Both the position numbers and the translations under genes were made by a program. A DNA stretch of 64,000 nucleotides, from IMG/VR virus record IMGVR_UViG_3300023371_000005; one strand, given 5' to 3'. Below, one piece after another: positions 4,362-64,000 of the stretch (position 1 is the stretch's first letter; each line of letters opens with the position of its first letter). Below the pieces are notes generated by a model. That model was not told the origin of the DNA and did no database searches. It saw only the letters and a program-made list of their open reading frames with translations. The stretch comes from a virus. Lineage: Duplodnaviria > Heunggongvirae > Uroviricota > Caudoviricetes.

Positions 4362-5321
4362 TTACTTTATACTATATCCAAATTCTTTTGCTTTGAAATA
4401 ATCCTGCCAGTAGTCTTCTCGTTCATCCAAGAGCGCACGAGTGCATTCTTCAATGACTTCAAAGGTGAAATTTTCTGGACCTGCCGCAATCATTGCAGGA
4501 TAAAGTTTATTGCGGGTTGGGGCATCTGCGCCGACGCCACGCTTGATATGTTGTTTCCAACGGTCTGCTAAGTTAGCAGCTTGACCAACATAACATTTTC
4601 CAGTTTCAATTTCAGTTATTTTATAAATGCCGGTATGGATTCCTCCGCCAATTACTCTGCCAATCAAATCAGTGGTTGGTTTTTCGTAATAACATTTCCA
4701 AATAACTTTATTCAAAGGCTCTTTATCTCTCAATAAATGTTCAATTGACCGCAAGGCTTTGATTTCCTCAACGTCAATATCATTTAGTTGAATACGATAA
4801 AAATCCTTTGCTGTTTTCATTTCTTCTGCTCTTTTGGCGGCCAGGACGGCGGCATCATTAATCGCACGCATAGCACTAACGTTATCAGCCATTTGGCGAT
4901 ATTGTTCCATAAAGTGTGCGACAGTTTCTTCATATTGTCTTTGAAATGCTTCAACATTTTCTTGATGCTCCTACGCTGCGCGAACTGCATCTTTCGCGAA
5001 GCAATCTTTCATAGCATCCATCTTAGACTTATATAGAGCATTTGCGGCCTCAGTAGCTTGTTCCTCAGCAACTTTTATTGTTGAACGCAAATTTTCAAGA
5101 CGGTCATTTTCACGACCTCTTTCAAGAACAAGTTTTGTGTGCTCTTGGTCCAAAATGGAATTTGATTCAATGAGTTGTTTATTTTCTAACTCAAGTTTTC
5201 TATTCTATTCAATAATTGAACTATTGATTTGAACAGTCTATCGTAATTTTGGTTTTAGAGTTAGATAAACAACTAATCCACTTATAATTGCCGCAAGTAG
5301 AAAAATAATTATATAACTCAT
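4362..5321 (-). CDS. GIY-YIG nuclease with N-terminal transmembrane helix and long coiled coil; three in-frame TAG codons (about 4971-4973, 5205-5207, 5238-5240)
   Basis: C-terminal GIYKITEIETGKCYVGQAANLADRWKQH is a GIY-YIG motif; the frame stays open from ATG 5321 through three TAGs into ORF 4362..4910 with no TAA or TGA; N-terminus MSYIIIFLLAAIISGLVVYLTL is hydrophobic. Confidence 0.6.
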
Positions 5322-13873: not shown

Positions 13874-13902
13874 ATTATACCATTATTTTTTTGAAAAATC
13901 AA
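13874..13902 (-). promoter_or_regulatory. promoter TTGATT-17-TATAAT (minus) for the gyrB-gyrA operon
   Basis: Motif. Confidence 0.6.
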
Positions 13903-14169
13903 GTATTTTGTTAGCAAGGATTTGATAGGTCAAAAAATAATATTATAATGATAATAAATTTGATTTACAATGAAAGAAGATAAGGGAGGGGATTATATTG
14001 TCTTTATTAGAGAAAATATAGCTTATAGTAGGATGTTATTATTTATCAGACTTACGTTTTCAACCTTATAATTTAATTGCAAAATGGATTTTCAGGATTG
14101 TAAGTCTTGAAAATTACACGCAAAAAGAAATTGATGATGCATATAATTATATTTTTGAGTAAAAAAAAA

Positions 14170-14207
14170 TAAAGCCGAGTAGATAAAATATCTACTCGGC
14201 TTTATTG
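14170..14207 (-). terminator. terminator after the lysis cassette
   Basis: Hairpin agccgagtagat-aaaat-atctactcggct flanked by A/T runs. Confidence 0.6.
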
Positions 14208-14211
14208 TCAT

Positions 14212-14541
14212 TTAACCGCAGGCATCGTCTACGAATTCTTCTTCTGGGACAGGTGGGGCATTATCCTGAGTTAGTAATTGTTGCATTACGCTTTCATATT
14301 TTATGCCACCCTTAGTATTTTCTTTTTCGGCTTTTTTATAATATGCTTGTTGACTGATAGCATATGCGCCCCAAGGACAAGCTGCCATAGCAGTGACCCA
14401 AGGTAATTCACCGAAATATTGATTTATGATACAAACGAAGGCTAAAATAATGAAAGCAATAGTAACTAACCAAATAAGCGCTGATTCTTGAACCAGTAGC
14501 TTTTTGGAAAATTCCATTTTTTCTTTCTTCTTATCAGCCAT
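14212..14541 (-). CDS. holin-like membrane protein
   Basis: 109 aa with two hydrophobic helices; lies immediately downstream of the endolysin with overlapping ATGA. Confidence 0.5.
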   Translation of the reverse strand: MADKKKEKMEFSKKLLVQESALIWLVTIAFIILAFVCIINQYFGELPWVTAMAACPWGAYAISQQAYYKKAEKENTKGGIKYESVMQQLLTQDNAPPVPEEEFVDDACG

Positions 14542-16211
14542 TACTTTTTAGCTTCAATCTTCTTGGTGAAATCTAGGCAAATCCAGCCAGAACCATTTTT
14601 CATCTTGCCCCAGCCATCTTTTTCATCAATGATGGTGTATAACTGGTTCTGCTTTACTTGAGTATTAACTTTGTAATTAGTACCTGCGCCCGCACGTACA
14701 TTTACTACATCACCGGTAATCATTATGACGTAAGCTTCAAAACCAGGAGCAGTAGCTAATTCAGAATCATATTCTTTCAAATACTTCTTATCAACAATAC
14801 CGCTAATAGGACCGGTCTTTACAGTAGAAATAGTGATATTATCTCCATTGATCTTACGAACAAATAATTTTTTACCAAACATCCAAGAGGCTACAGATTT
14901 ACCATTGGTAAATACAGCATCATTAGTTAGCATGACTTCCATGCCAGGCTCTAATTTTAATTCCTCTTCTGGAACAATAATAGTATTTTCACTCATTTTA
15001 TTTACAGCCTCCTTAATAGCTTTTTTAGTTAAAGGTCCGACGATACCATCATCGTCTAGGTTATTCTTTCTTTGGAAGTCAATAACTGCGGCATATGTCT
15101 TAGAACCAAAATCTCCATCTGGTCCTTTAGAACCAACATTATAACCCAATTTAACTAACCATTCTTGTAACTCTCTTACGTCTTCACCAGTATCACCAAT
15201 GCTTAAAACATCATTGTTAATAGATGGAGTTGGAGTTGGTGTAGGAGTTACAGAGCTTCCACCGCCAAAAGTAGTACGAGGAGCTTCATTCTGTCCATAC
15301 CAGAAAGATTTCTTATCTCTAGTATCGACGTGAGTAAAATGTCCATCAGCACTGGTTTCATATAAACCAATACCTTTAATTCCAATACTTTCAGCATATT
15401 TTGCTACTTCTCTTGGAGCAACTCCCTAAACAACAATATCAGCAGCATCACCTTTAGAGTGACGAGAGCCAGTAGCGCCACCAATACGCTTATTGTGAAC
15501 TGGACATCTGTATCCACTAGTTACAGTGATAGATTTACCAAAATGGTCTCTAATTTTTTGAACATATTCAACTAATTTAGGGTTGATAATGGTCTCAGAG
15601 CAGCAGCCAGAACCATGACAATCGAACTCTAAAGAGTTGAAGTTTTCAGATAACTTAGTCTTTTGACCCTTTTTATAAGTATTAGTAGCCATAGTAGTAT
15701 TTTCAACTCCTTTTACATATTTATCATAATACACTTGGCCCATTGCGGCACGCTTGGATTTTTGAGCGGCTGCATTAGCAGGTCTTTCAAAATTCATAAG
15801 AACTACATCGGATGCTTGCTGAACTGTAGTAGCATTTACTAAAATATTATAAACTGAATTCTTATAAGAGGTTTTCAATTCCTTTATTAAAAATTCTAAC
15901 TACATTTCCAAATCTCCAATGGATTTCTTCTTGGACTTTGCATAGTTTAATAGATTTTCCTTACGAGACCAATAAGTCCATTGAGCCAAGCCATATCCTG
16001 CAGAGTCACGCACAAAGTTGGTATATGTTCCATTATCAACTTTTGCGGTATACTCGGCATCGCTTAGTCCCAAAGAACGACTATATGTATCTTGTAAGTT
16101 ATTGGGGCGAAGGGCAGATTCGGCGTCTAAATTTCCCATCAGACCGGCTACACCGAAATCGCTAAAGCCTTCTTTCTTTAGAAAATCCCAAATGATTTTA
16201 CTATTAGACAT
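14541..16211 (-). CDS. multi-domain endolysin: N-terminal lysozyme-like domain, peptidase M15, PG_binding_1, SH3-like C-terminus; two in-frame TAGs (15900-15902, 15426-15428)
   Basis: Track ORFs 15900..16211, 15426..15878 and 14541..15149 share one frame and are separated only by TAG. The M15 motifs SGYRCPVHN...HSKGDAADI and FTHVDTRD lie on opposite sides of the second TAG. The PG-binding motif (DGDFGSKTYAAVIDFQRKNNLDDDG) and an SH3-like tail follow. Confidence 0.8.
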
Positions 16212-16270
16212 TCCTCTTCCTCCTTTAGATATGAAATATCCCCAATGGGAAGACCCATCGGGGATAATAA

Positions 16271-17515
16271 TTACATTTTTTCAGCAATACGAGCGATTTT
16301 AGAACGATGAATATTTTTCAAAGTAATTTCACCGTATATATCTTCGCCACGATAAACTTGAGAAGCTCGCTTCATACCATTACTACTACCAGCAAAGTGA
16401 ATATCATCAACCTGTGCTTTACAGTCACCATCAATAATACAAATGCTATCTTCACCGATACGTTGTAATGTTAGTTTCATCAGCTCAATATCTAAGTTTT
16501 GAGCCTCAGAAATATAAATGCCAGCTTTCATTCCAGTAGTATCATAACCACGAATATCAGATAGTGGAAGCAAAATTAATTTTTCGTCGTTAATCATTTG
16601 TTCAACAGCAATACGACCACCAAATTTACTAATTAAAAGATTACCAATTTGAGAATCTAATAACTTTTCATCCCTGGTACCAGGATAATAACCCAATTTA
16701 GCAGAATTCTTAGTTGCTACAGTATTACAGAACACAATAATTTTATCAATGCGATTGCGTTCCAGCTTATGTAACAAGAAGCCTAGACTAATGAAAGTTT
16801 TACCGGTTCCCGCAGGTCCCTTAATCATAGTAATTTTGTTATTACTCAAGCTGTCGAAAGCCAAGGATTGATAAGCATCACTTTTCATTGGCTTGACATT
16901 GCCGAAATAATTAGAGTTGAATGAGTCATACGATAAATGACGATAACCTTCACCTGTCCAGCATAGTCTATCCACTAACTCACCTGTCTCTTGGTCATAC
17001 ACTAACAAATATTCATTTATATATAAGTCAAATAAATTCTTATTCATATTAGAATAAAAATTACTCATAGCTTCAGAATCTAAATATACCTCTTTATATC
17101 CGTCATAATCATATGCTTCTTCTTGATATGATTCAACGGGAATGGGTAATACAGTTCTTGCTAAATGCTTACAGCATAAATCATTTGTTACGAAAATTAC
17201 TTCATCGTCTTGGTGGTTACGAGCGAACCAGTCAGCGCAAGCAATAATTTTACCATCTTCATTAGACAATAAACTTAGTGCAAAATCACTGCTCCAAATA
17301 ACGATTTCATAATCTCCATAGTGTTGATCCAATTCATGGACTACTTTGCGGGCCGCAAACTTTACATCTGGGTCTTTATTTGCGGAAGTCTTGATATGTT
17401 CTAATTCTTCTAATGTAATGGAAGAAATGACCAAAGTACAATCTTCGTCCCATAAATGGTTTGCTTTTAGAAGTAAAGAACAAGTGTCATAAAATTTATA
17501 CATCATCTTCAATAA
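16271..17515 (-). CDS. phoH: PhoH-like ATPase with N-terminal PIN domain
   Basis: Walker A GPAGTGKTF; N-terminal PIN-like region; probable real start at MMYKF. Confidence 0.8.
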   Translation of the reverse strand, partial: LLKMMYKFYDTCSLLLKANHLWDEDCTLVISSITLEELEHIKTSANKDPDVKFAARKVVHELDQHYGDYEIVIWSSDFALSLLSNEDGKIIACADWFARNHQDDEVIFVTNDLCCKHLARTVLPIPVESYQEEAYDYDGYKEVYLDSEAMSNFYSNMNKNLFDLYINEYLLVYDQETGELVDRLCWTGEGYRHLSYDSFNSNYFGNVKPMKSDAYQSLAFDSLSNNKITMIKGPAGTGKTFISLGFLLHKLERNRIDKIIVFCNTVATKNSAKLGYYPGTRDEKLLDSQIGNLLISKFGGRIAVEQMINDEKLILLPLSDIRGYDTTGMKAGIYISEAQNLDIELMKLTLQRIGEDSICIIDGDCKAQVDDIHFAGSSNGMKRASQVYRGEDIYGEITLKNIHRSKIARIAEKM

Positions 17516-17786
17516 CCTCTTCTTCCTCTTGGTCGTCGTCAGGAACTTGGAAGCCAATCTATCTCGTAGGAGGGTCTTGGTCAGCAGAGGCAGCGTCCTG
17601 ACGCATCTTAATGTTCGCTTTGTTTACAATTTCACTTTGTTTGGATTTTTTTGCTTCAACCCAGGTTAAAAACCAGGCACTTACTCCATCAATAATAGGA
17701 ATGACGTATGAAACAAATATAATTCCAAGGATAAAATACAATAATTCCATATGTATATCTCCCCCTTGATTTATATAAGAATACAA
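17496..17786 (-). CDS. small membrane protein; annotated end is TAG (17559-17561), under code 15 it extends about 21 aa to TAA at 17496
   Basis: ORF with a transmembrane helix; which stop is used is ambiguous. Confidence 0.35.
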
Positions 17787-18255: not shown

Positions 18256-18284
18256 ATTATACCTAAAAAATATGGAAAAGTCAA
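18256..18284 (-). promoter_or_regulatory. promoter TTGACT-17-TATAAT (minus)
   Basis: Motif. Confidence 0.55.
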
Positions 18285-24155: not shown

Positions 24156-24184
24156 ATTATATCATATTTTTTTATAAAAATCAA
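24156..24184 (-). promoter_or_regulatory. promoter TTGATT-17-TATAAT (minus)
   Basis: Motif. Confidence 0.6.
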
Positions 24185-37452: not shown

Positions 37453-37481
37453 ATTATATCATATTTTTTTATAAAAATCAA
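37453..37481 (-). promoter_or_regulatory. promoter TTGATT-17-TATAAT (minus)
   Basis: Motif. Confidence 0.6.
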
Positions 37482-44522: not shown

Positions 44523-44526
44523 ATAT

Positions 44527-45250
44527 TACACTCCTAAATCTTGTAAAGTTAAAGTATCTCGTTTTTCATAAGGAATACGAATAAGTTTAATATTATGATT
44601 TTTACAGTATTCATTTTTTAACTTATCACGATACTATCTTTCTTCTAAAGTTTCGGAATTGTCCCATGGAGTATAATCGTTACTATGTTGACGTCCATCA
44701 AATTCTATTAAATGAGACAAGACATTATTACTATCAAAAATAGCAAAATCAAATCGTAGTCTTTTTTTATTTCTTAAATCTGAGAAGCTATATTCTTTAG
44801 CATAGTTAATATTATTTTCTCTTAATAATAATTCAATATTTTCTTCGCCAATAGAACGATTAGCACATCCACAACTTGTTGTATGTAATCTTGTTAGATT
44901 TGAGCCGAATATAGATACTATATTACCGCATTCACATTCACAAATCCACTTACTTTTCCATCCATTTTCTTCTGTGCTAATATAATTATTATCTGGACCT
45001 TTAACGGTAAGTTTTCCATAAACATTTCCCGTTAAATCATTTCTTTGAGCATGACATTTTCCACAACTCATATTTTGTCCAGATTTTATTCCACTATTTA
45101 GATTGCAGCTATTAACACTAGTCAAATTACCGCAAGAACAGCGACAAATCCAATAAATATTATGACCTTTTCCCCGAGGTTTTGTTTCATCTATATATAA
45201 TGGTTGTAGCTATCCTATTGTTTCAATAGAAAAATCTCTTGGTTTTCTTC
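44527..45250 (-). mobile_element. free-standing homing-endonuclease-like gene (paralog 2) with two in-frame TAGs (about 45212 and 44634-44636); TTG start
   Basis: Past TAG 44634 the frame continues into KLIRIPY, matching LIRIPY at the paralog-1 C-terminus. Upstream of TAG 45212 is another WICRCSCGN repeat and an MGRKPRD start, paralleling MGRKIDL in paralog 1. Confidence 0.55.
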
Positions 45251-45336
45251 CCAAATAATCAACTCCTTCTATAATAATTGAAAAAAGTCGGGGTTCAATT
45301 ATTATTCTTTGTCCATATTTTCATTTCTTTATATAT

Positions 45337-56867: not shown

Positions 56868-56994
56868 GGCCACCGATATTCGCATTCGCATTCGACGTGG
56901 AATTGTTCAAATTCAGATAGAAAGGACCAGTATTCAGCCTGTTATTCCAATTACTACTGAAGTTCGTGACGTGAGACGAATTGCAATTCGTATC
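56868..56994 (-). repeat. DGR template repeat TR2 (cognate of VR2)
   Basis: 127-nt near-copy of 57079..57204; differences fall at positions where this copy has A on the coding (minus) strand; lies outside any real gene. Confidence 0.8.
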
Positions 56995-57061
56995 GTGGAA
57001 TAAATATTTTATCGTATAAGTAACCCATATATTCAAAGAATTTTACTATTCTTTAAATTTT

Positions 57062-58255
57062 TTATAATTTTTGGATGCGGCCACCGACATTCGCACTCGC
57101 ACTCGACGCGGAATCGTTCAAACGCAGAAAGAAAGGACCAGAAGCCAGCCCGTTAGCCCAATAACCACCGAAGCGCGCGACGCGAGACGAATTGCAACCC
57201 GCATAATCAGAGAAGTAAGTTGTACCACTACCTCCTTTAGCCGTTATAACAAATCCGCCTTCACTAGTACCTAAACAATTGGTATAATATCCATAAGTAT
57301 TACTAGTGAGTCCAGAAGCATTGGTAAATTCATAATTAGTGCCAGAATCATCAAAAGCTCCAGTAGTAGTTAAATAATTTCTAGAAGCATCAGTAACAAT
57401 GCCATCACACCATTTAGAAATATTACCCCAAAAATTTTCAATTCCCGCAAATTTCATACCTTCAGTATCCGTTCCACCATAATCCAATCCTTGATTATTC
57501 ATTGTTCCAGTAATAATAGGAGCAGAATTAGAACTATTAGTATAACCATATCCGAGAGCAGTTTGTCCATTCAAAGATTTATATTTTATAACATACATGG
57601 CCTATAAATAAACTAATTGATAGTAAGCAAACTACTCATAACCATCGCCATTTAGTTGGGCTGCCGCACGAAACTCACTAATAGTTTTAGAAGCCGTAGG
57701 GGTTTTATTACTTAAACTACGTAATTTACCATCACTATCAATATAGCCATCATAAGCACCAGTATAAAATGTATCTAAATCTTTATTATGCGTATGTGCG
57801 TAATAAGTAAAATCTGTATTAGCAATATCATTTGTAAAACTAACAGTAACTTTATTATCGTCGCTTTTAGTAATTCTTAATCCTCTTCTTGGAAAAGCAA
57901 TCATTACATCTCCTGCACTTCCACTTTCAATATCTACTGGATTACCATTAATATCTTCAGCGTAATTATTAGGATTTAATTTTACAACTTCTACTCCATC
58001 TTTCATAAGAACGGGATAATGTCCGAAAAATTCATCCCAAGCAGAAGATTTTGCTTCCATGGTAAATGCGTCATCCTCATAAGAACAACAAGTGTCAGGA
58101 TTAGAATCATTTAAATCAATAATAACAGTCATTACTTTTACCGGCTCTTCATCTAGTTTTGTTCCAATTTCAATTAACGCATCTTCAATATGCTCCACAT
58201 GAGAAGCACACCACTTATCAACAAAATCATGTAAATTCATTCTTTCATAAGGCAT
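57062..58255 (-). CDS. DGR target protein 2 (FGE-sulfatase/C-type-lectin-fold, variable C-terminus), 398 codons with two in-frame TAGs (57632-57634, 57602-57604)
   Basis: Track ORFs 57632..58255 and 57062..57598 share one frame; the segment GDGYE-TAG-FAYYQLVYL-TAG-AMYVIKYK aligns to GDTYE-Q-FAWFQLIYL-Q-AMFIMKYK of paralog 60070..61296 (CAA at both positions); GN(I)W and RFGG(Y)W motifs. Confidence 0.8.
57079..57204 (-). repeat. DGR variable repeat VR2 at the 3' end of target 2
   Basis: See TR2. Confidence 0.8.
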
Positions 58256-58383
58256 AAATTCACATCCTATTCTTACTTATTTAATATTTTATCAATTTCC
58301 TCTTGTAAATTTGGAAATCTCAAAATTACTGCATCATAATCTAATTTTCCTTCTTTAATTCTCATAGCTAAGTATTCAGCCAT
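58256..58383 (-). CDS. small ORF (about 36 aa) between RT region and target 2
   Basis: ATG overlaps the upstream stop; weak. Confidence 0.2.
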
Positions 58384-58387
58384 AAAA

Positions 58388-58618
58388 TTACACCCCCATA
58401 ATAATAGCATCTAAAGCATTTTTCATAATCTCATTTTCATCAGACATTTTCTTTAGATACTCGTCTTTGCTATATTGAATCTCTTCATATTCATAATAAA
58501 CATGACCTTTTTCATCAACTTTTTCGATAATATTATTATGAATATAAACAGTAGTTTTTCCAATCACTAAAGGTTTTGCCTGCTCGGCACTACCTCGCAC
58601 GATACCCATATTTTTCAT
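58388..58618 (-). CDS. hypothetical protein (76 aa) overlapping the RT 3' end
   Basis: Good SD AGGAGA before the ATG; not Avd-like (acidic). Confidence 0.4.
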   Translation of the reverse strand: MKNMGIVRGSAEQAKPLVIGKTTVYIHNNIIEKVDEKGHVYYEYEEIQYSKDEYLKKMSDENEIMKNALDAIIMGV

Positions 58619-59681
58619 ATCTTTGTATCTCCTTTCCTTGAATAACGCATTTTTTATATATCTCCATAGAACGATAAAATGTTCTAAAATATTTATTAAT
58701 AAAATTAGACATTGTTGTCTAATCTATTATCCCTTTATAAGAGAAAAAAGCACAAAATTCGTGATAAGTTGGTAAAAATATTTCATCTCGATAATAAGAA
58801 TTATATAACATTTTTATTATAAATTTTCTCACCTTTTTATAAGTTCGTTTACGCAAAATAATTCTATTATGAAAATGTCTATATCCTACAAAATCTATTC
58901 CCCTAATATCTACAGGAAAAATCTAATAATTATCTTTTATTTCTAATTTTAATTCTTCTTGAAGATATTTTTTTATTTGATAAAAATATTTCCATAACTA
59001 TTTTTTATTATTTCCTAAAATTACTATATCATCCATATAACGAATAATATATTTAATTTTCAATTCTTCTTTACACCAATGATCAAAAAATGATAAATAA
59101 TAATTTGATAAATATTGTGATAGATAAGAACCAATAGGTAAACCATTATTACAACTTTCAATAATTTTATCTAAAAGCAATAAAGTCTATTTATCTTTAA
59201 TTTTTTTACGAATTAGTTTTTGTAAAATAGTTTGATTAATATTTGGATAAAATTTTTTTATATCAATTTTCAAGCAATACTAAGTATTTTTAACATCTTT
59301 TAGATATTTTTTAGTAAGATTAGTTGCTCGTGTAATTCCGGCATTTTTTATAGAAGCACAACTATGATAACAAAAATGTTTTACTAAAGTTGGTTCTAAC
59401 TATAACATAATGGCCCATTGAATAATTCTATCTGGATAATAAGGAAGTTTCATAATTTCTCGCTCTTTTCCACTATCCTAAATTATTGAATGCTTATAGA
59501 GTGAAACCTAATATTCATTATTTAATAATATTTGTTGAATCTATTTTAGATTATTATCTAAATCTTTTTCAACTTTTTTTACTGAACGATAATGAGATTT
59601 ATCCTATTTAGCCATTTTGTGTGCTAACCGCAAATTATCCATATTACATATTTTATCAAAAATATTATTTAGACGTTTCAT
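58536..59681 (-). CDS. DGR reverse transcriptase, 381 aa, with 11 in-frame TAG codons
   Basis: RT motifs across one open frame: DRIIQWA (motif 2), IDIKKFYPNI (3), DGR-specific GLPIGSYLSQYLSNYYL with SQ rather than QG (4), YIRYMDDIVIL (5), IFPVDIRGIDFVGYRH (7); only TAG interrupts it, no TAA or TGA until 58536; very AT-rich. Confidence 0.8.
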
Positions 59682-59714
59682 ATTAATTCCTTCTATAATT
59701 ATTGTTATTTTTAT

Positions 59715-59749
59715 AAGGTTTTAGTAAAAAATATTTTTACTAAAACCTT
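59715..59749. other. perfect 16-bp hairpin between TR1 module and RT start
   Basis: aaggttttagtaaaaa-tat-tttttactaaaacctt. Confidence 0.55.
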
Positions 59750-59756
59750 ATTTTAT

Positions 59757-59900
59757 TTTGACTGAGAGAACGTTCATTATAATAAAATAATTACTAATAC
59801 CCATTATCAGAAGAATTTTACCAAGAGGTAAGGTTTATGTATTTAGAAAAATATTATATATAAAACTCTCAAAGAGAGTTATAAATAAAATAACAAAAGA
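59757..59900 (-). ncRNA. conserved about 150-nt element 3' of TR1 (paralog of 56717..56865)
   Basis: See 56717..56865. Confidence 0.5.
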
Positions 59901-59906
59901 GTGCGT

Positions 59907-60036
59907 GCCGATATTCGAATCCGTATTGTCGGGTGTTTCATTCACATTGAAGATGAAAGGTCCAGTATTCAGACTATTATTCCAATAACCGCTGAAATTC
60001 GCTACGTTACTGGGATTGACATTCGAATTATCGGAA
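59907..60036 (-). repeat. DGR template repeat TR1 (cognate of VR1)
   Basis: 130-nt alignment to 60091..60220 with about 31 mismatches, all at positions where TR1 has A on the coding strand. Confidence 0.85.
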
Positions 60037-60069
60037 GTATATTTTTCCATACAATTAACCTATATTATT

Positions 60070-61296
60070 TTATAGTTTTTGGACGCGCGCGCCGATATTC
60101 GAAGCCGCATCGTCGGGCGTACCATCCACACCGAAGAGGAAAGGCCCAGCAACCAGACCATCATCCCAACAACCGCCGAAACGCGCCACGCGACCGGGAT
60201 AGACATCCGAAGCATCGGAAAAATAAGTTGTCTCGCTACCAGCACCGATCATTTTCTTTAACGCAAAACCGCCTTCAGAAGTGGCACAAGGATAAATTAA
60301 ATAATCCTCTAAATAACCATTTTCGGCAACTTGTTCTGTATCAACTTCCGCAGTAATTTCGTATCCTTCACCATAGTCGTTGAAATTATTAGTTGTAATT
60401 TTATAATTGCAATTATCATCAGAGACAATGCCATCAACCCAATTCCAAATATTACCCCAGAAATTTTCAATACCAGCAAATTTCATACCTTGAGTCATAT
60501 CTGTGTTATCTCCGTCATAGGGAATACCCCAGTCCAAACTGCAAGTATTCATAATGCCAGAAGCTATTGCTTCCTCTCCATTTACATTACCACATCCAAG
60601 AGAAGATTGGCCATTAATTGATTTATACTTCATAATAAACATAGCTTGTAAATAAATTAATTGAAACCAAGCAAATTGTTCATAAGTATCTCCATTGTTG
60701 TGTGCGGCCGCACGTGCTTCACCGATTGTTATATTACAAGCAGGAGTTTTACCACTCAAACTACGTAATTTATTATTTTCATCAATATACCCATTATAAG
60801 CACCGATATAAAATGTATCTAATGAATTATTATTAAAAGTATGAGCGTAATATTCAAAATTATCAGGATCTTCAATATTGGTAAAACTAATTCTTATTTT
60901 CATATCAATCTCATTTCCTGTAATTCTTAATCCTCTTCTTGGAAAAGCAATCATTACATCTCCTGCACTTCCACTTTCAATATCTACTGGATTACCATTA
61001 ATATCTTCAGCGTAATTATTAGGATTTAATTTTACAACTTCTACTCCATCTTTCATAAGAACGGGATAATGTCCGAAAAATTCATCCCAAGCACTTGCGC
61101 CCGCAGACATTTCGCTAGCATCATCCTCATAAGAGCAACAAGTTAATGGATCTGAATTAGATAAATCAATAACAACAGTCATAGTCTTACCAAATGCTTT
61201 ATTATATAATCTTACTAATTCATCTTCAATATGTTCTACATGAGAAGCACACCACTTATCTACTCCATCTTGAAGATTCATTCGTTCATAACTCAT
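60070..61296 (-). CDS. DGR target protein 1 (FGE-sulfatase/C-type-lectin-fold), 408 aa, no internal TAG
   Basis: FWGNIWNWVDG and RVARFGGCW motifs; VR at codons about 360-405; GC-rich IMH-like gacgcgcgcgcc at the 3' end. Confidence 0.8.
   Translation of the reverse strand: MSYERMNLQDGVDKWCASHVEHIEDELVRLYNKAFGKTMTVVIDLSNSDPLTCCSYEDDASEMSAGASAWDEFFGHYPVLMKDGVEVVKLNPNNYAEDINGNPVDIESGSAGDVMIAFPRRGLRITGNEIDMKIRISFTNIEDPDNFEYYAHTFNNNSLDTFYIGAYNGYIDENNKLRSLSGKTPACNITIGEARAAAHNNGDTYEQFAWFQLIYLQAMFIMKYKSINGQSSLGCGNVNGEEAIASGIMNTCSLDWGIPYDGDNTDMTQGMKFAGIENFWGNIWNWVDGIVSDDNCNYKITTNNFNDYGEGYEITAEVDTEQVAENGYLEDYLIYPCATSEGGFALKKMIGAGSETTYFSDASDVYPGRVARFGGCWDDGLVAGPFLFGVDGTPDDAASNIGARVQKL
60091..60220 (-). 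repeat. DGR variable repeat VR1
   Basis: See TR1. Confidence 0.85.
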
Positions 61297-61302
61297 TTAT
61301 TT

Positions 61303-61731
61303 TCACTCTCCTAAAATAAAATCACCAAGTAAACCTTCTCCAAGTAAAGAAGTTCCTCCAGTCAAAGCAACTGTAATTATCTAGCCATTTTGAATTGAAA
61401 GAGAATAAGGCTAATTTGTTATTGAATCAATAATAATTAATGACTTTGCGGAACGAGTAGTTACCATTCCATTTTCATCAATAATAACATATTCATTGGG
61501 ATTACCAATAATTTGATTCTATTTTTGATTCCAAGAATCTCTTTCTCCAACTTGTAAATGCACTTCCTAATTATTAATATGATTATTTACATATTCAATA
61601 TCAGCTTTAGTGTCATCAATAGCATTGATAATATTTACTAAGGTATCATTATTCGGATAGTCCTACATATTAATTTTAGACCATAAATAAATAAGACCAT
61701 CAAAGTCTAAAAATGATTTTGTTTTAGACAT
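61303..61731 (-). CDS. hypothetical structural-module protein, 142 aa, five in-frame TAGs
   Basis: SD AAGGAGGAAG before ATG 61731; frame open to TGA 61303 apart from 5 TAG. Confidence 0.5.
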
Positions 61732-61784
61732 AGAACTTCCTCCTTATATATTTTAACATAAAAATTTTATAAAGTCAATAAAAA

Positions 61785-61817
61785 AAGGGAGAGGGACAGT
61801 TATTTTATCCCTCTCCC
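61785..61817 (-). terminator. hairpin terminator
   Basis: Stem agggagaggga-cagttatttta-tccctctccct; a TTGACT-17-TAAAAT promoter lies just downstream on the minus strand. Confidence 0.55.
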
Positions 61818-61832
61818 TTAAATTATTTTAAA

Positions 61833-63062
61833 TTAAGCGTTAGCAATAGCAGCTTCAATTTCAGCAGTAGTTAAAGCAATTACTCTAGTATTAATTTCAT
61901 TATCAGTATATGCCTTAGCATCAATTAATGCTTGTGCGGCAGCACCGTATGCATCATAAGTATTGGCGGGAATAGTATCCTGCTTCTTTGCTAATTCCTC
62001 ATCAACATAAGTCTTATCGGCCTTTTTAGCAATTTCAGTAGCATTAGCGCTAACAGCATTCTGACGAGCAGTAACTTCAGCCTCTAAATCAGCCTGAGAA
62101 GCCTTTGAAGCGATAGCGTTAGACAATTCAGTCTTATCAGCAGTCTTTAGATAATCGCCTTCAACAACAGCCAAACGACTATCAACGCCATTAATAGCAT
62201 CAGACAATTCAGTCTTATCAGCAGCTTTTAGATAGTCATCTTCAACAGCCTTAACACGACTAGCCAAAGCAGTTAAATCAGCAGCCTTAGCATAATCACC
62301 AATAGACAAAGCAGTAATAGCGTCAGCAACATAAGCGCTAACAGTCTTATCACCAGTATCAACCTTACTCTGCAAAGCTGCAATAGCTTCATTCATTGCA
62401 GAAGCATCATCTGGATGATCCTGAATCCAAGCAGCGATTTCAGCTAGAGTATCTAGAGACTCCTTAGCGTCCTCTGTGATTAACTGCTTAGCCAATTCTT
62501 CGTTAGCAATGGCACGAACAGACTTACCAGCGTCATCGCCCTCTAGAGTAGCAACACGACCAACTAAAGCAGTGTCATCATAAGTAGCAGCAGCCTGAGC
62601 GTCAGCGATCATCTGTACAACAGTCTTACCATCAGCAACTTCACCGACCAAAGATTCTAGTGCGTCAACTTCACCCTGTGCAGTGACAGCCTTGTCATCA
62701 GCAGCCTTTGCGGCAGCAGCATTAGCTTCTTCTGCAGCCTTAGCACGAAGAATTTCAGTATCTAAAGCAGCTTTAACAGAAGCAGCAGACTCAGAAGAAC
62801 CACCATTAGCAGCATTTAGAGTTTCTTCTGCTTTCTTGTTAATATAAGCAACAATAGACTGTTGATCAGTATAACCTTCTGGAATTTCACCAACATAAGA
62901 ACGAAGATCTTCAATTTCTAATCCACGAGCAGTAGCCTCGCTTGCAATAGCTTCCGCAATTGCCTCATCTCGAGCAGTAGCTTCAGCAGCAATTTTTTCA
63001 GCGATCTTGGACCATAAAGTACTTACGCCCTATTGGTCTAAAAATTTCTTTAAATCAGCCAT
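61833..63062 (-). CDS. Ala/Glu/Lys-rich coiled-coil structural protein (possible fiber or decoration protein), 409 aa, one in-frame TAG at 63030-63032
   Basis: SD AAAGGAGAT before ATG 63062; same frame as track ORF 61833..62651; repeats (GD)YLK(A/T)ADKTELS. Confidence 0.55.
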
Positions 63063-63092
63063 TTTTATTATCTCCTTTATTTTTTATTTTTT

Positions 63093-63554
63093 TTATTCGC
63101 AAATCTCAAGAATTTCTGTATGAGTTAAAGGAACTAATTTATTGAATAATTCTTGAGCATATGCCTTTGTAGCGTATTCTTCCAAAGCAATTTCTGGAAT
63201 CTCAATTTTATTTAGAGCTTCTTGTAATTGTTCTTGAGTAACTAAGTCACTATCTACAAGCACTTCATACTCATATAGCTCTTCATTCCATTGATATAAC
63301 TTTTTCTCTTGGAATGCTTTATAGATGACATTTACATCACCAATTGCAGGAAAATTATAATGAGTATTAGCATTAATAACTAATACTTTATCTTCTCCAA
63401 GATACTTTAAATCCAACCATTCATTGACACCGTCTCCAATTTTTAATTTACCAGTATCAATTTCAAATCCAGGCTCACCAGGGGCTAAAACAGGATTTAA
63501 AGTGATCCAACTTGAAGCTTTACCTCTTTTTAATTGAATTGTATATGTAGCCAT
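63093..63554 (-). CDS. putative tail/structural protein
   Basis: N-terminus TYTIQLKRGKASSWITLNPVLAPGEPGFEIDTGKLKIGDGVNEW resembles a conserved phage tail-fiber N-terminal domain; SD GAGGAGG. Confidence 0.4.
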   Translation of the reverse strand: MATYTIQLKRGKASSWITLNPVLAPGEPGFEIDTGKLKIGDGVNEWLDLKYLGEDKVLVINANTHYNFPAIGDVNVIYKAFQEKKLYQWNEELYEYEVLVDSDLVTQEQLQEALNKIEIPEIALEEYATKAYAQELFNKLVPLTHTEILEICE

Positions 63555-63569
63555 ACTTTTCCTCCTCAA

Positions 63570-63860
63570 TTAAAAAGGATCAGAGCCATCAATAGAGCCG
63601 CCGTCATAAATAAGATCACCAGATGGGGGATTATTTCCACCAGAATTACCTCCAGAAGAGCTTGACATACAATATGGATTAATTTCAATCCATTGCTTAG
63701 AGCCATTTAACATATAATATTTAGAACTACTAATAATAAAAATAGTGCTACCAGGAGTTAATCTATTTTTATCTAATTGTTTTAAATCATCAATAGTATC
63801 TAAATCAAAATGCTTAATACCATATGTTATATGACCACTATTTGAATGAATATTAACCAT
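63570..63860 (-). CDS. small Gly/Ser-rich structural-module protein
   Basis: SD AAAAGGAGGG before the ATG. Confidence 0.35.
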   Translation of the reverse strand: MVNIHSNSGHITYGIKHFDLDTIDDLKQLDKNRLTPGSTIFIISSSKYYMLNGSKQWIEINPYCMSSSSGGNSGGNNPPSGDLIYDGGSIDGSDPF

Positions 63861-63935
63861 TATAACCCTCCTTTTTATGTAAGTAAATATCTTCATAATA
63901 TTATAAAAAATTCATTGAGCATCTTAATACTTTTA

Positions 63936-64000
63936 GTCCAAAAATTTCTAAATCACTTTTTACTTTTGGGTTTTCGGCACTTTCGACTGGCACCGACCGG
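63936..64000. repeat. second copy of the about 65-nt GC-rich element (see 37497..37566); truncated by window end
   Basis: Shared core aaaatttctaaatc(a/g)ctttt. Confidence 0.35.

Follow-up and report, generated by a model that had tools for sequence, protein, structure and literature searches.

Among the phages that read the amber codon TAG as glutamine, the closest described systems to the one reported here are the crAss-like and Lak phages, for which PMC9523058 gives proteomic support for genetic code 15 in the crAss-like group. Borges et al. (bioRxiv 10.1101/2021.08.26.457843) offer the hypothesis that recoded phages place lysis genes, and homing endonucleases lying in early regions, behind in-frame stop codons as a means of regulation; the idea of a lysis timer is already published in that preprint. 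We analysed a 64,000-nucleotide stretch (hereafter the window) of the Caudoviricetes record IMGVR_UViG_3300023371_000005, focusing on a modular endolysin gene with two in-frame TAG codons and on the small holin-like gene that follows it, which together form the lysis cassette. We are highly confident that the former encodes a single intact endolysin in which TAG stands for glutamine and whose synthesis depends on a tRNA(CUA) of the phage itself. To the whole account, in which an intact code-15 endolysin and its dependence on the suppressor are joined by a gating of the lysis cassette, we assign a probability of about 0.6.

The frame of the endolysin gene, preceded by a strong ribosome-binding site (AAAGGAGGAAGAGGAATG), is interrupted by exactly two stop codons, both TAG, at codons 104 and 262 (Table 1). 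All four modules that the preliminary description had ascribed to the lysis enzyme pass the curated cut-offs of Pfam. The same description had counted two TAGs, which is correct, and had put one of them inside the catalytic domain, which needs amending, as each sits in a catalytic domain of its own. Codon 262 lies after the motif SRHSKGDAAD (SRHxxGxAAD) and before the motif HFTHVD of the M15 domain, both of which we take to carry the zinc ligands of this family. Weak sequence matches in the PDB link the N-terminal domain to phi29 gp13 (3csr, E=4.4e-5) and the M15 domain to a Streptomyces Zn D-Ala-D-Ala carboxypeptidase (1lbu). A protein search returned 120 full-length homologues of 545-561 amino acids with 77-92% identity, from contigs of up to 210 kb, and inspection of their DNA revealed that the gene calls had been made with TAG as glutamine. 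Since the domain matches cross both TAGs and full-length homologues are this numerous, the open frame is not a product of chance, and the claim that there is one endolysin gene, which cannot be made without decoding TAG, holds. In the window and in six orthologous, independently assembled contigs the frame is never broken by TAA or TGA, and the orthologues in loci L003, L005, L007, L011, L013 and L015 carry 3, 5, 1, 4, 0 and 1 in-frame TAGs, respectively. Codon 104 is TAG in 6 of these 7 sequences and CAA in L013, and codon 262 is TAG in 3 and TCT (Ser) in 4 of them. Under the standard code (table 11), the frame falls apart into open reading frames (ORFs) of 103, 150 and 202 amino acids, of which the latter two would require TTG starts, neither with a strong Shine-Dalgarno match; gene callers that use this code will cut such an endolysin into three fragments. 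The N-terminus of the endolysin has neither a signal sequence nor a hydrophobic stretch resembling a signal-arrest-release (SAR) segment, the maximum 15-residue hydropathy being 0.69. We also observed an AAGGAGG motif inside the gene, 11 nt 5' of an in-frame ATG at codon 406, which is located 3' of both TAGs at the linker preceding the SH3 region. An internal start at this codon could yield a 151-residue C-terminal wall-binding fragment without TAG decoding, and fragments of this type have been reported for some endolysins of phages of Gram-positive bacteria.

The identity of the amino acid inserted at TAG was examined by codon-level comparison within the clade. In the endolysin alignment, opposite TAG the other sequences have exclusively CAA or CAG at columns 40, 104, 218 and 307, AAG or AAA at columns 110 and 241, and TCT at column 262; at column 497 the codons vary. 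When the TAG columns of the endolysin and GIY-YIG orthologues are taken together, Q is found 8 times, K 4 times, E twice and others once each, while Y, L and W are never aligned with TAG; three more TAGs, in homologues of the holin-like gene, align with Q. The PDB matches, as standard-code outgroups, gave no amino acid for TAG, since phi29 gp13 has E and 1lbu has G at the two TAG sites. We considered the conservation of the TAG at codon 104 as a sign of selection and rejected it, as the sequences represent only about four independent lineages and their four-fold degenerate sites are still 56-81% identical. The window as a whole holds about 87 genes, all on the minus strand, which account for 93% of its length if TAG is taken as a sense codon. 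Among the 70 genes of at least 80 amino acids, 54 end with TAA and 16 with TGA in a gene call that accepted only these two stops and so cannot itself reveal a TAG stop; no TAG-terminated gene was seen among about 110 genes in the relatives' loci according to the collection's own gene calls. There are 43 in-frame TAGs in the window, versus 250 and 187 in the other two frames, and TAG makes up on average 5.9% of the glutamine-class codons. Judged by its sequence, this uncultivated phage, with a genome of roughly 160-210 kb, uses genetic code 15 (TAG = Gln).

Neither in the window nor near the lysis and replication region of about 60 related loci did we detect a tRNA. Using the 108-residue protein encoded at 63896..63570 as a query, we recovered IMG/VR contigs that reach past the high end of the window. 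Two of them (L111 and L112) match the window from position 60971 or 60977 to 64000 at 100.000% nucleotide identity (a 3,030-bp overlap), and two others (L113 and L115) match positions 63619-64000 (382 bp) at 100%. These contigs contain at least 10 tRNAs in an array that has the same orientation as the genes, namely Tyr, Thr, Ser, CUA, Leu, Gly, Lys, Lys, Met and Cys. The tRNA(CUA) (Table 1) folds into a cloverleaf with U1 and U72 unpaired, G73 and an encoded CCA; ARAGORN labels it 'tRNA-Pyl', which is just that program's name for an amber anticodon, and nothing else suggests pyrrolysine. At 157 nt 5' of it stands a match to the host-type promoter TTGACT-17-TATAAT (11/12), and the array has more matches, of the form TTGATT-17-TATAAT, between its tRNAs, several of them preceded by TG. 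The latter motif, with the upstream TG, is present about 20 times in the window, 15-45 nt (in one case 124 nt) before gene starts, and it precedes almost exclusively TAG-free genes, including gyrB. The array itself extends over L115 1521-8305 (= L111 25-3697), starting about 6.2 kb past the high end of the window; distances of 0.2-1.2 kb separate its tRNAs, several of which have a promoter-like site of their own upstream. Among the tRNAs are also tRNA-like fragments, such as a T-arm with the acceptor 3' half and a separate 5' half just 5' of the tRNA(CUA) (L115 4520-4600).

We compared relatives of the cassette in IMG/VR, where the AAA_24 protein retrieved 69 loci and PhoH retrieved 22, mostly on contigs of 100-200 kb; a scan of metagenome contigs gave only one close locus, and a first scan of IMG/VR with the endolysin as query gave two distant ones. 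The order PhoH, lysin, holin-like gene is conserved in the clade, and at least seven lysin architectures occupy the slot between PhoH and the holin-like gene. Apart from the arrangement in the window, these include M15 + lysozyme2 + Amidase_2 + SH3 (844 amino acids), CHAP + Amidase_2 (430), ELLD + NAGPA + PG_binding_1 (549), NAGPA + SPOR + Amidase_2 (568), Amidase_2 alone (262), NAGPA-SPOR and Amidase_2 as two separate genes, and a 261-residue protein without a Pfam match. The 17 lysin genes of 16 representative loci contain 2, 3, 5, 4, 0, 1, 4, 2, 1, 2, 6, 9, 3, 1, 5, 2 and 0 TAGs. TAG is thus carried by 15 of the 17 lysins and by 9 of 16 homologues of the holin-like gene, as opposed to 0 of 15 GyrB, 1 of 12 GyrA and 0 of 12 Band_7 genes, and in 16 of 17 loci TAG is present in the lysin, the holin or both. 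The difference between lysins and gyrases in TAG carriage is highly significant in a Fisher test that makes no correction for phylogeny (P = 5e-21). In the pooled lysins TAG accounts for 19% of the glutamine-class codons. In the window and the nearest of its relatives GyrB adjoins the cassette, and elsewhere it lies within a few kb; the PhoH genes of distant relatives contain 1-6 TAGs. There is accordingly good evidence for counting the lysis cassette among the suppressor-dependent genes, whichever lysin fills the slot. In two distant relatives (L109 4929-7474 and L110 3404-5995), PhoH is in pieces of 281-297 and 113 amino acids with a TAG-rich LAGLIDADG endonuclease gene between them, which suggests the insertion of an intron or intein.

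Within the window, the use of TAG is uneven. The 70 genes of at least 80 amino acids contain 32 in-frame TAGs, all of them in 11 genes, so that 59 genes are free of TAG versus 46.7 expected under even use (P about 3e-4, simulation). The main users are the endolysin (2), the GIY-YIG (3) and HNH (2) genes, the reverse transcriptase (11), and tail or tail-fibre-like genes (5, 3, 2 and 1); no TAG occurs in PhoH, GyrB, GyrA, ligase, RNase H, thymidylate synthase, Band_7 or the other metabolic genes. Without correction for phylogeny, the TAG share of the glutamine-class codons is 12.5% in the endolysin, that is, above the window mean, 52% in the reverse transcriptase, and 19-29% in the homing endonucleases of the window (41% in the relatives' pooled). 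The 84-residue ORF between p140 and PhoH, which overlaps the PhoH start, has 1 TAG (0-2 in relatives), so TAG use starts just 5' of the lysis cassette. The two homing endonuclease genes are set among TAG-free replication genes, and their counterparts in relatives have 8-12 TAGs (L011 20602-21558; L094 19321-20319).

The gene downstream of the endolysin contains no TAG, as had been noted before, and its earlier designation as a holin is putative. The 109-residue protein has a strong transmembrane segment at residues 21-39, a weaker hydrophobic stretch at about residues 46-62, a Lys-rich N-terminus with M1 and M9, and an acidic C-terminus. It has no family match in Pfam, PHROGs or NCBIfam, and the only names on its homologues, among the matches listed, are 'hypothetical protein' and 'positive regulator of sigma E activity'; hence we call it holin-like. 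Its homologues in the clade are 47-68% identical and adjoin a lysin, apart from L103, where the gene directly follows PhoH. The ATG of the holin-like gene overlaps the TAA of the endolysin (TAATG), and the Shine-Dalgarno energy at M1 is -1.9 kcal/mol, weaker than in 91% of the window genes (median -9.25 kcal/mol). Because of this overlap and the weak ribosome-binding match, translation of the holin-like gene is most likely coupled to ribosomes finishing the endolysin. An overlap (0 to -7 nt, including TAATG) and a weak Shine-Dalgarno match are kept at the lysin/holin junction in 11 loci, where the holin has 0-1 and the lysin 0-9 TAGs. On the other hand, L095, L097, L109 and L110 have a 21-nt spacer and an AAAGGAG site before the holin, and in these four and in L103 the holin has 2-5 TAGs and the lysin, where present, 0-2. 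This contrast suggests that holin synthesis depends on the suppressor either directly, through TAGs of its own, or through coupling to a TAG-bearing lysin.

Two terminator-like hairpins flank the cassette (Table 1). The upstream one stands between the PhoH stop and the ribosome-binding site of the endolysin; its structure is preserved through compensatory changes in close relatives, and distant relatives have hairpins of unrelated sequence with T-runs at the same place. The space between this hairpin and the endolysin start codon is too short for a promoter, so the cassette may be reached solely by read-through from the p140/PhoH unit, the nearest strong promoter match upstream being the one before p140/p84/PhoH. 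In the copy of the window itself, the hairpin is followed by a weak T-run; we considered whether a weak T-run goes together with more TAGs in the lysin and dropped the idea, as the relatives are too few and do not sort cleanly.

Table 1. Coordinates of the lysis cassette and of the other features discussed (window positions unless a contig is named)
Feature	Position	Strand	Description
Strong terminator-like hairpin	14168..14206	minus	18 pairs + TTTTTTT; directly 3' of holin-like gene, closes cassette
Holin-like gene	14212..14541	minus	109 aa, 0 TAG
Endolysin gene	14541..16211	minus	556 codons + TAA
SH3_3	14580..14711	minus	aa 501-544; Pfam E=1.1e-6
ATG, codon 406 of endolysin	14994-14996		possible internal start
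AAGGAGG in endolysin	15008-15014	minus	
PG_binding_1	15015..15191	minus	aa 341-399; Pfam E=4e-19
Peptidase_M15_3	15324..15617	minus	aa 199-296; Pfam E=2e-24
In-frame TAG, codon 262	15426..15428	minus	within Peptidase_M15_3
Phage_lysozyme2	15717..16205	minus	aa 3-165; Pfam E=3.7e-34
In-frame TAG, codon 104	15900..15902	minus	within Phage_lysozyme2
Upstream terminator-like hairpin	16237..16266	minus	13 pairs; between PhoH stop and endolysin ribosome-binding site
PhoH/PIN_4 gene	16271..17506	minus	0 TAG; directly upstream of endolysin, conserved left anchor of slot
84-aa ORF	17496-17750	minus	1 TAG; between p140 and PhoH
Strong host-type promoter match	18256..18284	minus	TTGACT-17-TATAAT (11/12); nearest upstream, before p140/p84/PhoH
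tRNA(CUA)	L111 25-99	coding strand	about 9.8 kb beyond window high end; Rfam tRNA 51.5 bits
Promoter-like motifs, intergenic examples	13902..13874, 24184..24156, 37481..37453, 51144..51116		
Perfect TTGACA-17-TATAAT sites	8053, 6010, 5748		three in window
Homing endonuclease genes (GIY-YIG, HNH)	4362-5321, 44526-45254		3 + 2 TAGs
Diversity-generating retroelement	56906-61296	minus	
Retroelement reverse transcriptase	59681..58536		PHROG match E=6e-101; 11 in-frame TAGs
Template repeat	59903-60041		
Variable repeat	60087-60225		C-terminus of tail protein
Tail protein	61296..60070		first target
Second, paralogous target	58255..57062		
Variable repeat of second target	57117-57241		
Template-like copy of second target	56906-57030		

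In the account that we favour, the phage tRNA(CUA) reads TAG, and a full-length active endolysin requires two read-through events. A stop at codon 104 would leave a 103-residue piece of the lysozyme-like domain, and a stop at codon 262 would yield an M15 domain that lacks the last of its conserved His motifs. Ribosomes completing the endolysin frame would then pass on to the holin-like gene, and the output of the cassette would be set by how well the suppressor tRNA beats the host release factor 1 (RF1), with read-through of the terminator-like hairpin just upstream of the cassette as a second layer. That selection maintains the arrangement, as well as the coupling, the competition with RF1 and any delay in time, is what we infer from the patterns described above.

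A number of observations weigh against this account or against a simple timer. The endolysin does not appear to be specially enriched in TAG, as its share is below those of the reverse transcriptase and the homing endonucleases, and TAG sites are gained and lost between close relatives, codon 104 alone being widely shared, to no greater extent than common descent accounts for. The phage of L013 is recoded, with 8 TAGs in its GIY-YIG gene, yet its endolysin (82% identical to that of the window) and its holin have none; at least one lineage can therefore do without the gate. Because its promoter match is of the class found ahead of about 20 TAG-free genes, the suppressor tRNA is probably transcribed from early in infection rather than switched on late. 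In the canonical model, the holin times lysis, and an endolysin without a signal is harmless on its own until the holin acts; as the endolysin here has no signal and the holin sets the time, a TAG-free holin argues against a simple timer. The M9 codon of the holin-like gene has a weak AGAAAG match (-5.6 kcal/mol), which might permit independent starts, and the four loci with a spacer before the holin form one subclade, so that the junction contrast rests on few independent lineages.

It is quite conceivable, if in our judgement not probable, that the pattern is a neutral by-product of recoding. On this explanation TAG is a rare extra glutamine codon, arising by single-base change from CAG, AAG or TCG, tolerated where the suppressor is plentiful or little product is needed and purged from early or bulk genes, and lysis is timed by terminator read-through and the holin, not by TAG. 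The shifting positions of TAG between close relatives and the TAG-free lysis genes of L013 are as this explanation would have it, and so is the finding that each codon type aligned with TAG is one base away from it, or is connected to it via a synonymous intermediate. Moreover, TAG is used most heavily by fast-evolving or selfish genes (those for the retroelement reverse transcriptase, homing endonucleases and tail-fibre-like proteins), genes in the lysin slot are replaced particularly often, most lineages have a terminator-like hairpin before the cassette, and the suppressor has a host-type promoter. Neutrality does not readily explain, however, why lysins of at least seven architectures nearly all carry TAG while the nearby GyrB never does, or why the lysin, the holin or both carry it in all but one of the loci; nor does it fit the junctions, where holins with a ribosome-binding site of their own have many TAGs and overlapped ones few, a pattern not expected from drift alone.

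Returning to the gated cassette, a stronger form of this account would have selection keep an amber gate on the holin in two interchangeable ways and, together with the upstream hairpin, form a lysis clock of two layers, one transcriptional and one in decoding; we offer this only as a tentative idea that is more doubtful than neutrality. Rather unlikely, in our opinion, is the strict timer, in which the two TAGs delay the endolysin until the suppressor accumulates and thereby set the moment of lysis. The same logic has been proposed for crAss-like and Agate phages (bioRxiv 10.1101/2021.08.26.457843). In the present clade the lysis genes fall in the TAG-using class throughout, and the cassette stands among genes without TAG, where no promoter of its own can be recognised between hairpin and start codon. 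An endolysin without an export signal should be harmless when made early and alone, however, the holin of the window's subclade is TAG-free, both genes of L013 do without TAG, and the suppressor promoter looks early. Of the earlier proposal that suppressor availability delays lysis, the recoding, the phage's own tRNA(CUA), the TAG-free replication genes and the TAGs in lysis genes are thus upheld, while the same four observations speak against the delay itself. Finally, that the three ORFs of the standard code are separate genes, remnants of a decaying pseudogene or results of sequencing errors is effectively refuted in spite of that three-way split and of the internal ribosome-binding site and ATG at codon 406, as the breaks fall inside domains and not between them, the middle and last ORFs lack good starts, the frame is kept in the 120 homologues and six independent assemblies, and the interruptions are always TAG in a genome that carries tRNA(CUA).

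Some further features were observed in the window and its relatives. The reverse transcriptase belongs to a diversity-generating retroelement (Table 1), whose template repeat and variable repeat show 32 differences, 31 of them at template adenines. A second, paralogous target has a variable repeat and a template-like copy in which 27 of 44 mismatches are at adenines. Within the tRNA array, L111 1544-1633 gives a partial Rfam match to OLE RNA (52.9 bits; gathering score 50). The record IMGVR_UViG_3300032167_000002 (402,311 bp; L022 and L026) contains two diverged AAA_24 regions about 193 kb apart, with 91% and 88% identity to the window protein, and is probably an assembly chimera or a concatemer of two related genomes.

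We found no description of this clade in the literature. With these results, the phages that read TAG as glutamine are joined by a large clade from the gut that is apparently undescribed and probably infects Gram-positive hosts. They also offer a natural comparison, in which one slot is filled by many unrelated endolysins, nearly all with TAG, near gyrase genes that are almost always without it, and this pattern supports the dependence of lysis genes on the suppressor as a general rule. The overlap with the holin-like gene suggests a concrete way in which the amber codons of an endolysin could govern the protein that actually times lysis. With a TAG-free relative, an early-looking suppressor promoter and a signal-less endolysin, the word "timer" is not yet earned.

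In lambda-type late control, lysis genes lie directly behind a terminator that needs read-through. The cassette described here resembles that arrangement by position only, with a hairpin directly before the lysis genes, no room for a promoter and a strong terminator after them, and it differs in that no antiterminator was identified and the T-run is weak in the window's copy. Another parallel is found in the modular endolysins with two catalytic domains of phages of Gram-positive bacteria, which likewise have catalytic domains followed by wall-binding ones (PG_binding_1 and SH3), no signal peptide and a small membrane protein encoded next to them; unlike these, the window gene requires suppression of stop codons, and its partner belongs to no described holin family. 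The domains of the endolysin are closest to those of Faecalibacterium and Acutalibacter phage endolysins. The PDB match of the first domain, phi29 gp13, is a tail-tip protein, whereas the window gene is part of a lysis cassette. Because of the closeness to the former endolysins and of SPbeta-like replication genes (YorF, YorH, DnaB and PolIII alpha), the host is probably a Gram-positive gut member of the Clostridia and not of the Bacteroidota.

These replication genes also set the phage apart from the crAss-like and Lak phages, as does its lineage: searches of GenBank phages with 4 kb of DNA and with the GyrB protein returned no close relative, the GyrB identity being at most 44%. Further differences from these phages are that the lysis cassette lies between PhoH and gyrase, in the DNA-metabolism part, instead of in a structural-lysis block, that the endolysin is not among the most TAG-rich genes, and that the available sequence showed no 'code change module' with a release factor or tRNA synthetase. 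What is shared with the code-15 crAss-like and Lak phages is the use of in-frame TAG as glutamine, a suppressor tRNA encoded by the phage, replication genes compatible with the standard code, and the placing of the recoded stop in lysis, tail and homing endonuclease genes, where the homing endonucleases of the window mirror the recoded intron endonuclease described by Borges et al.

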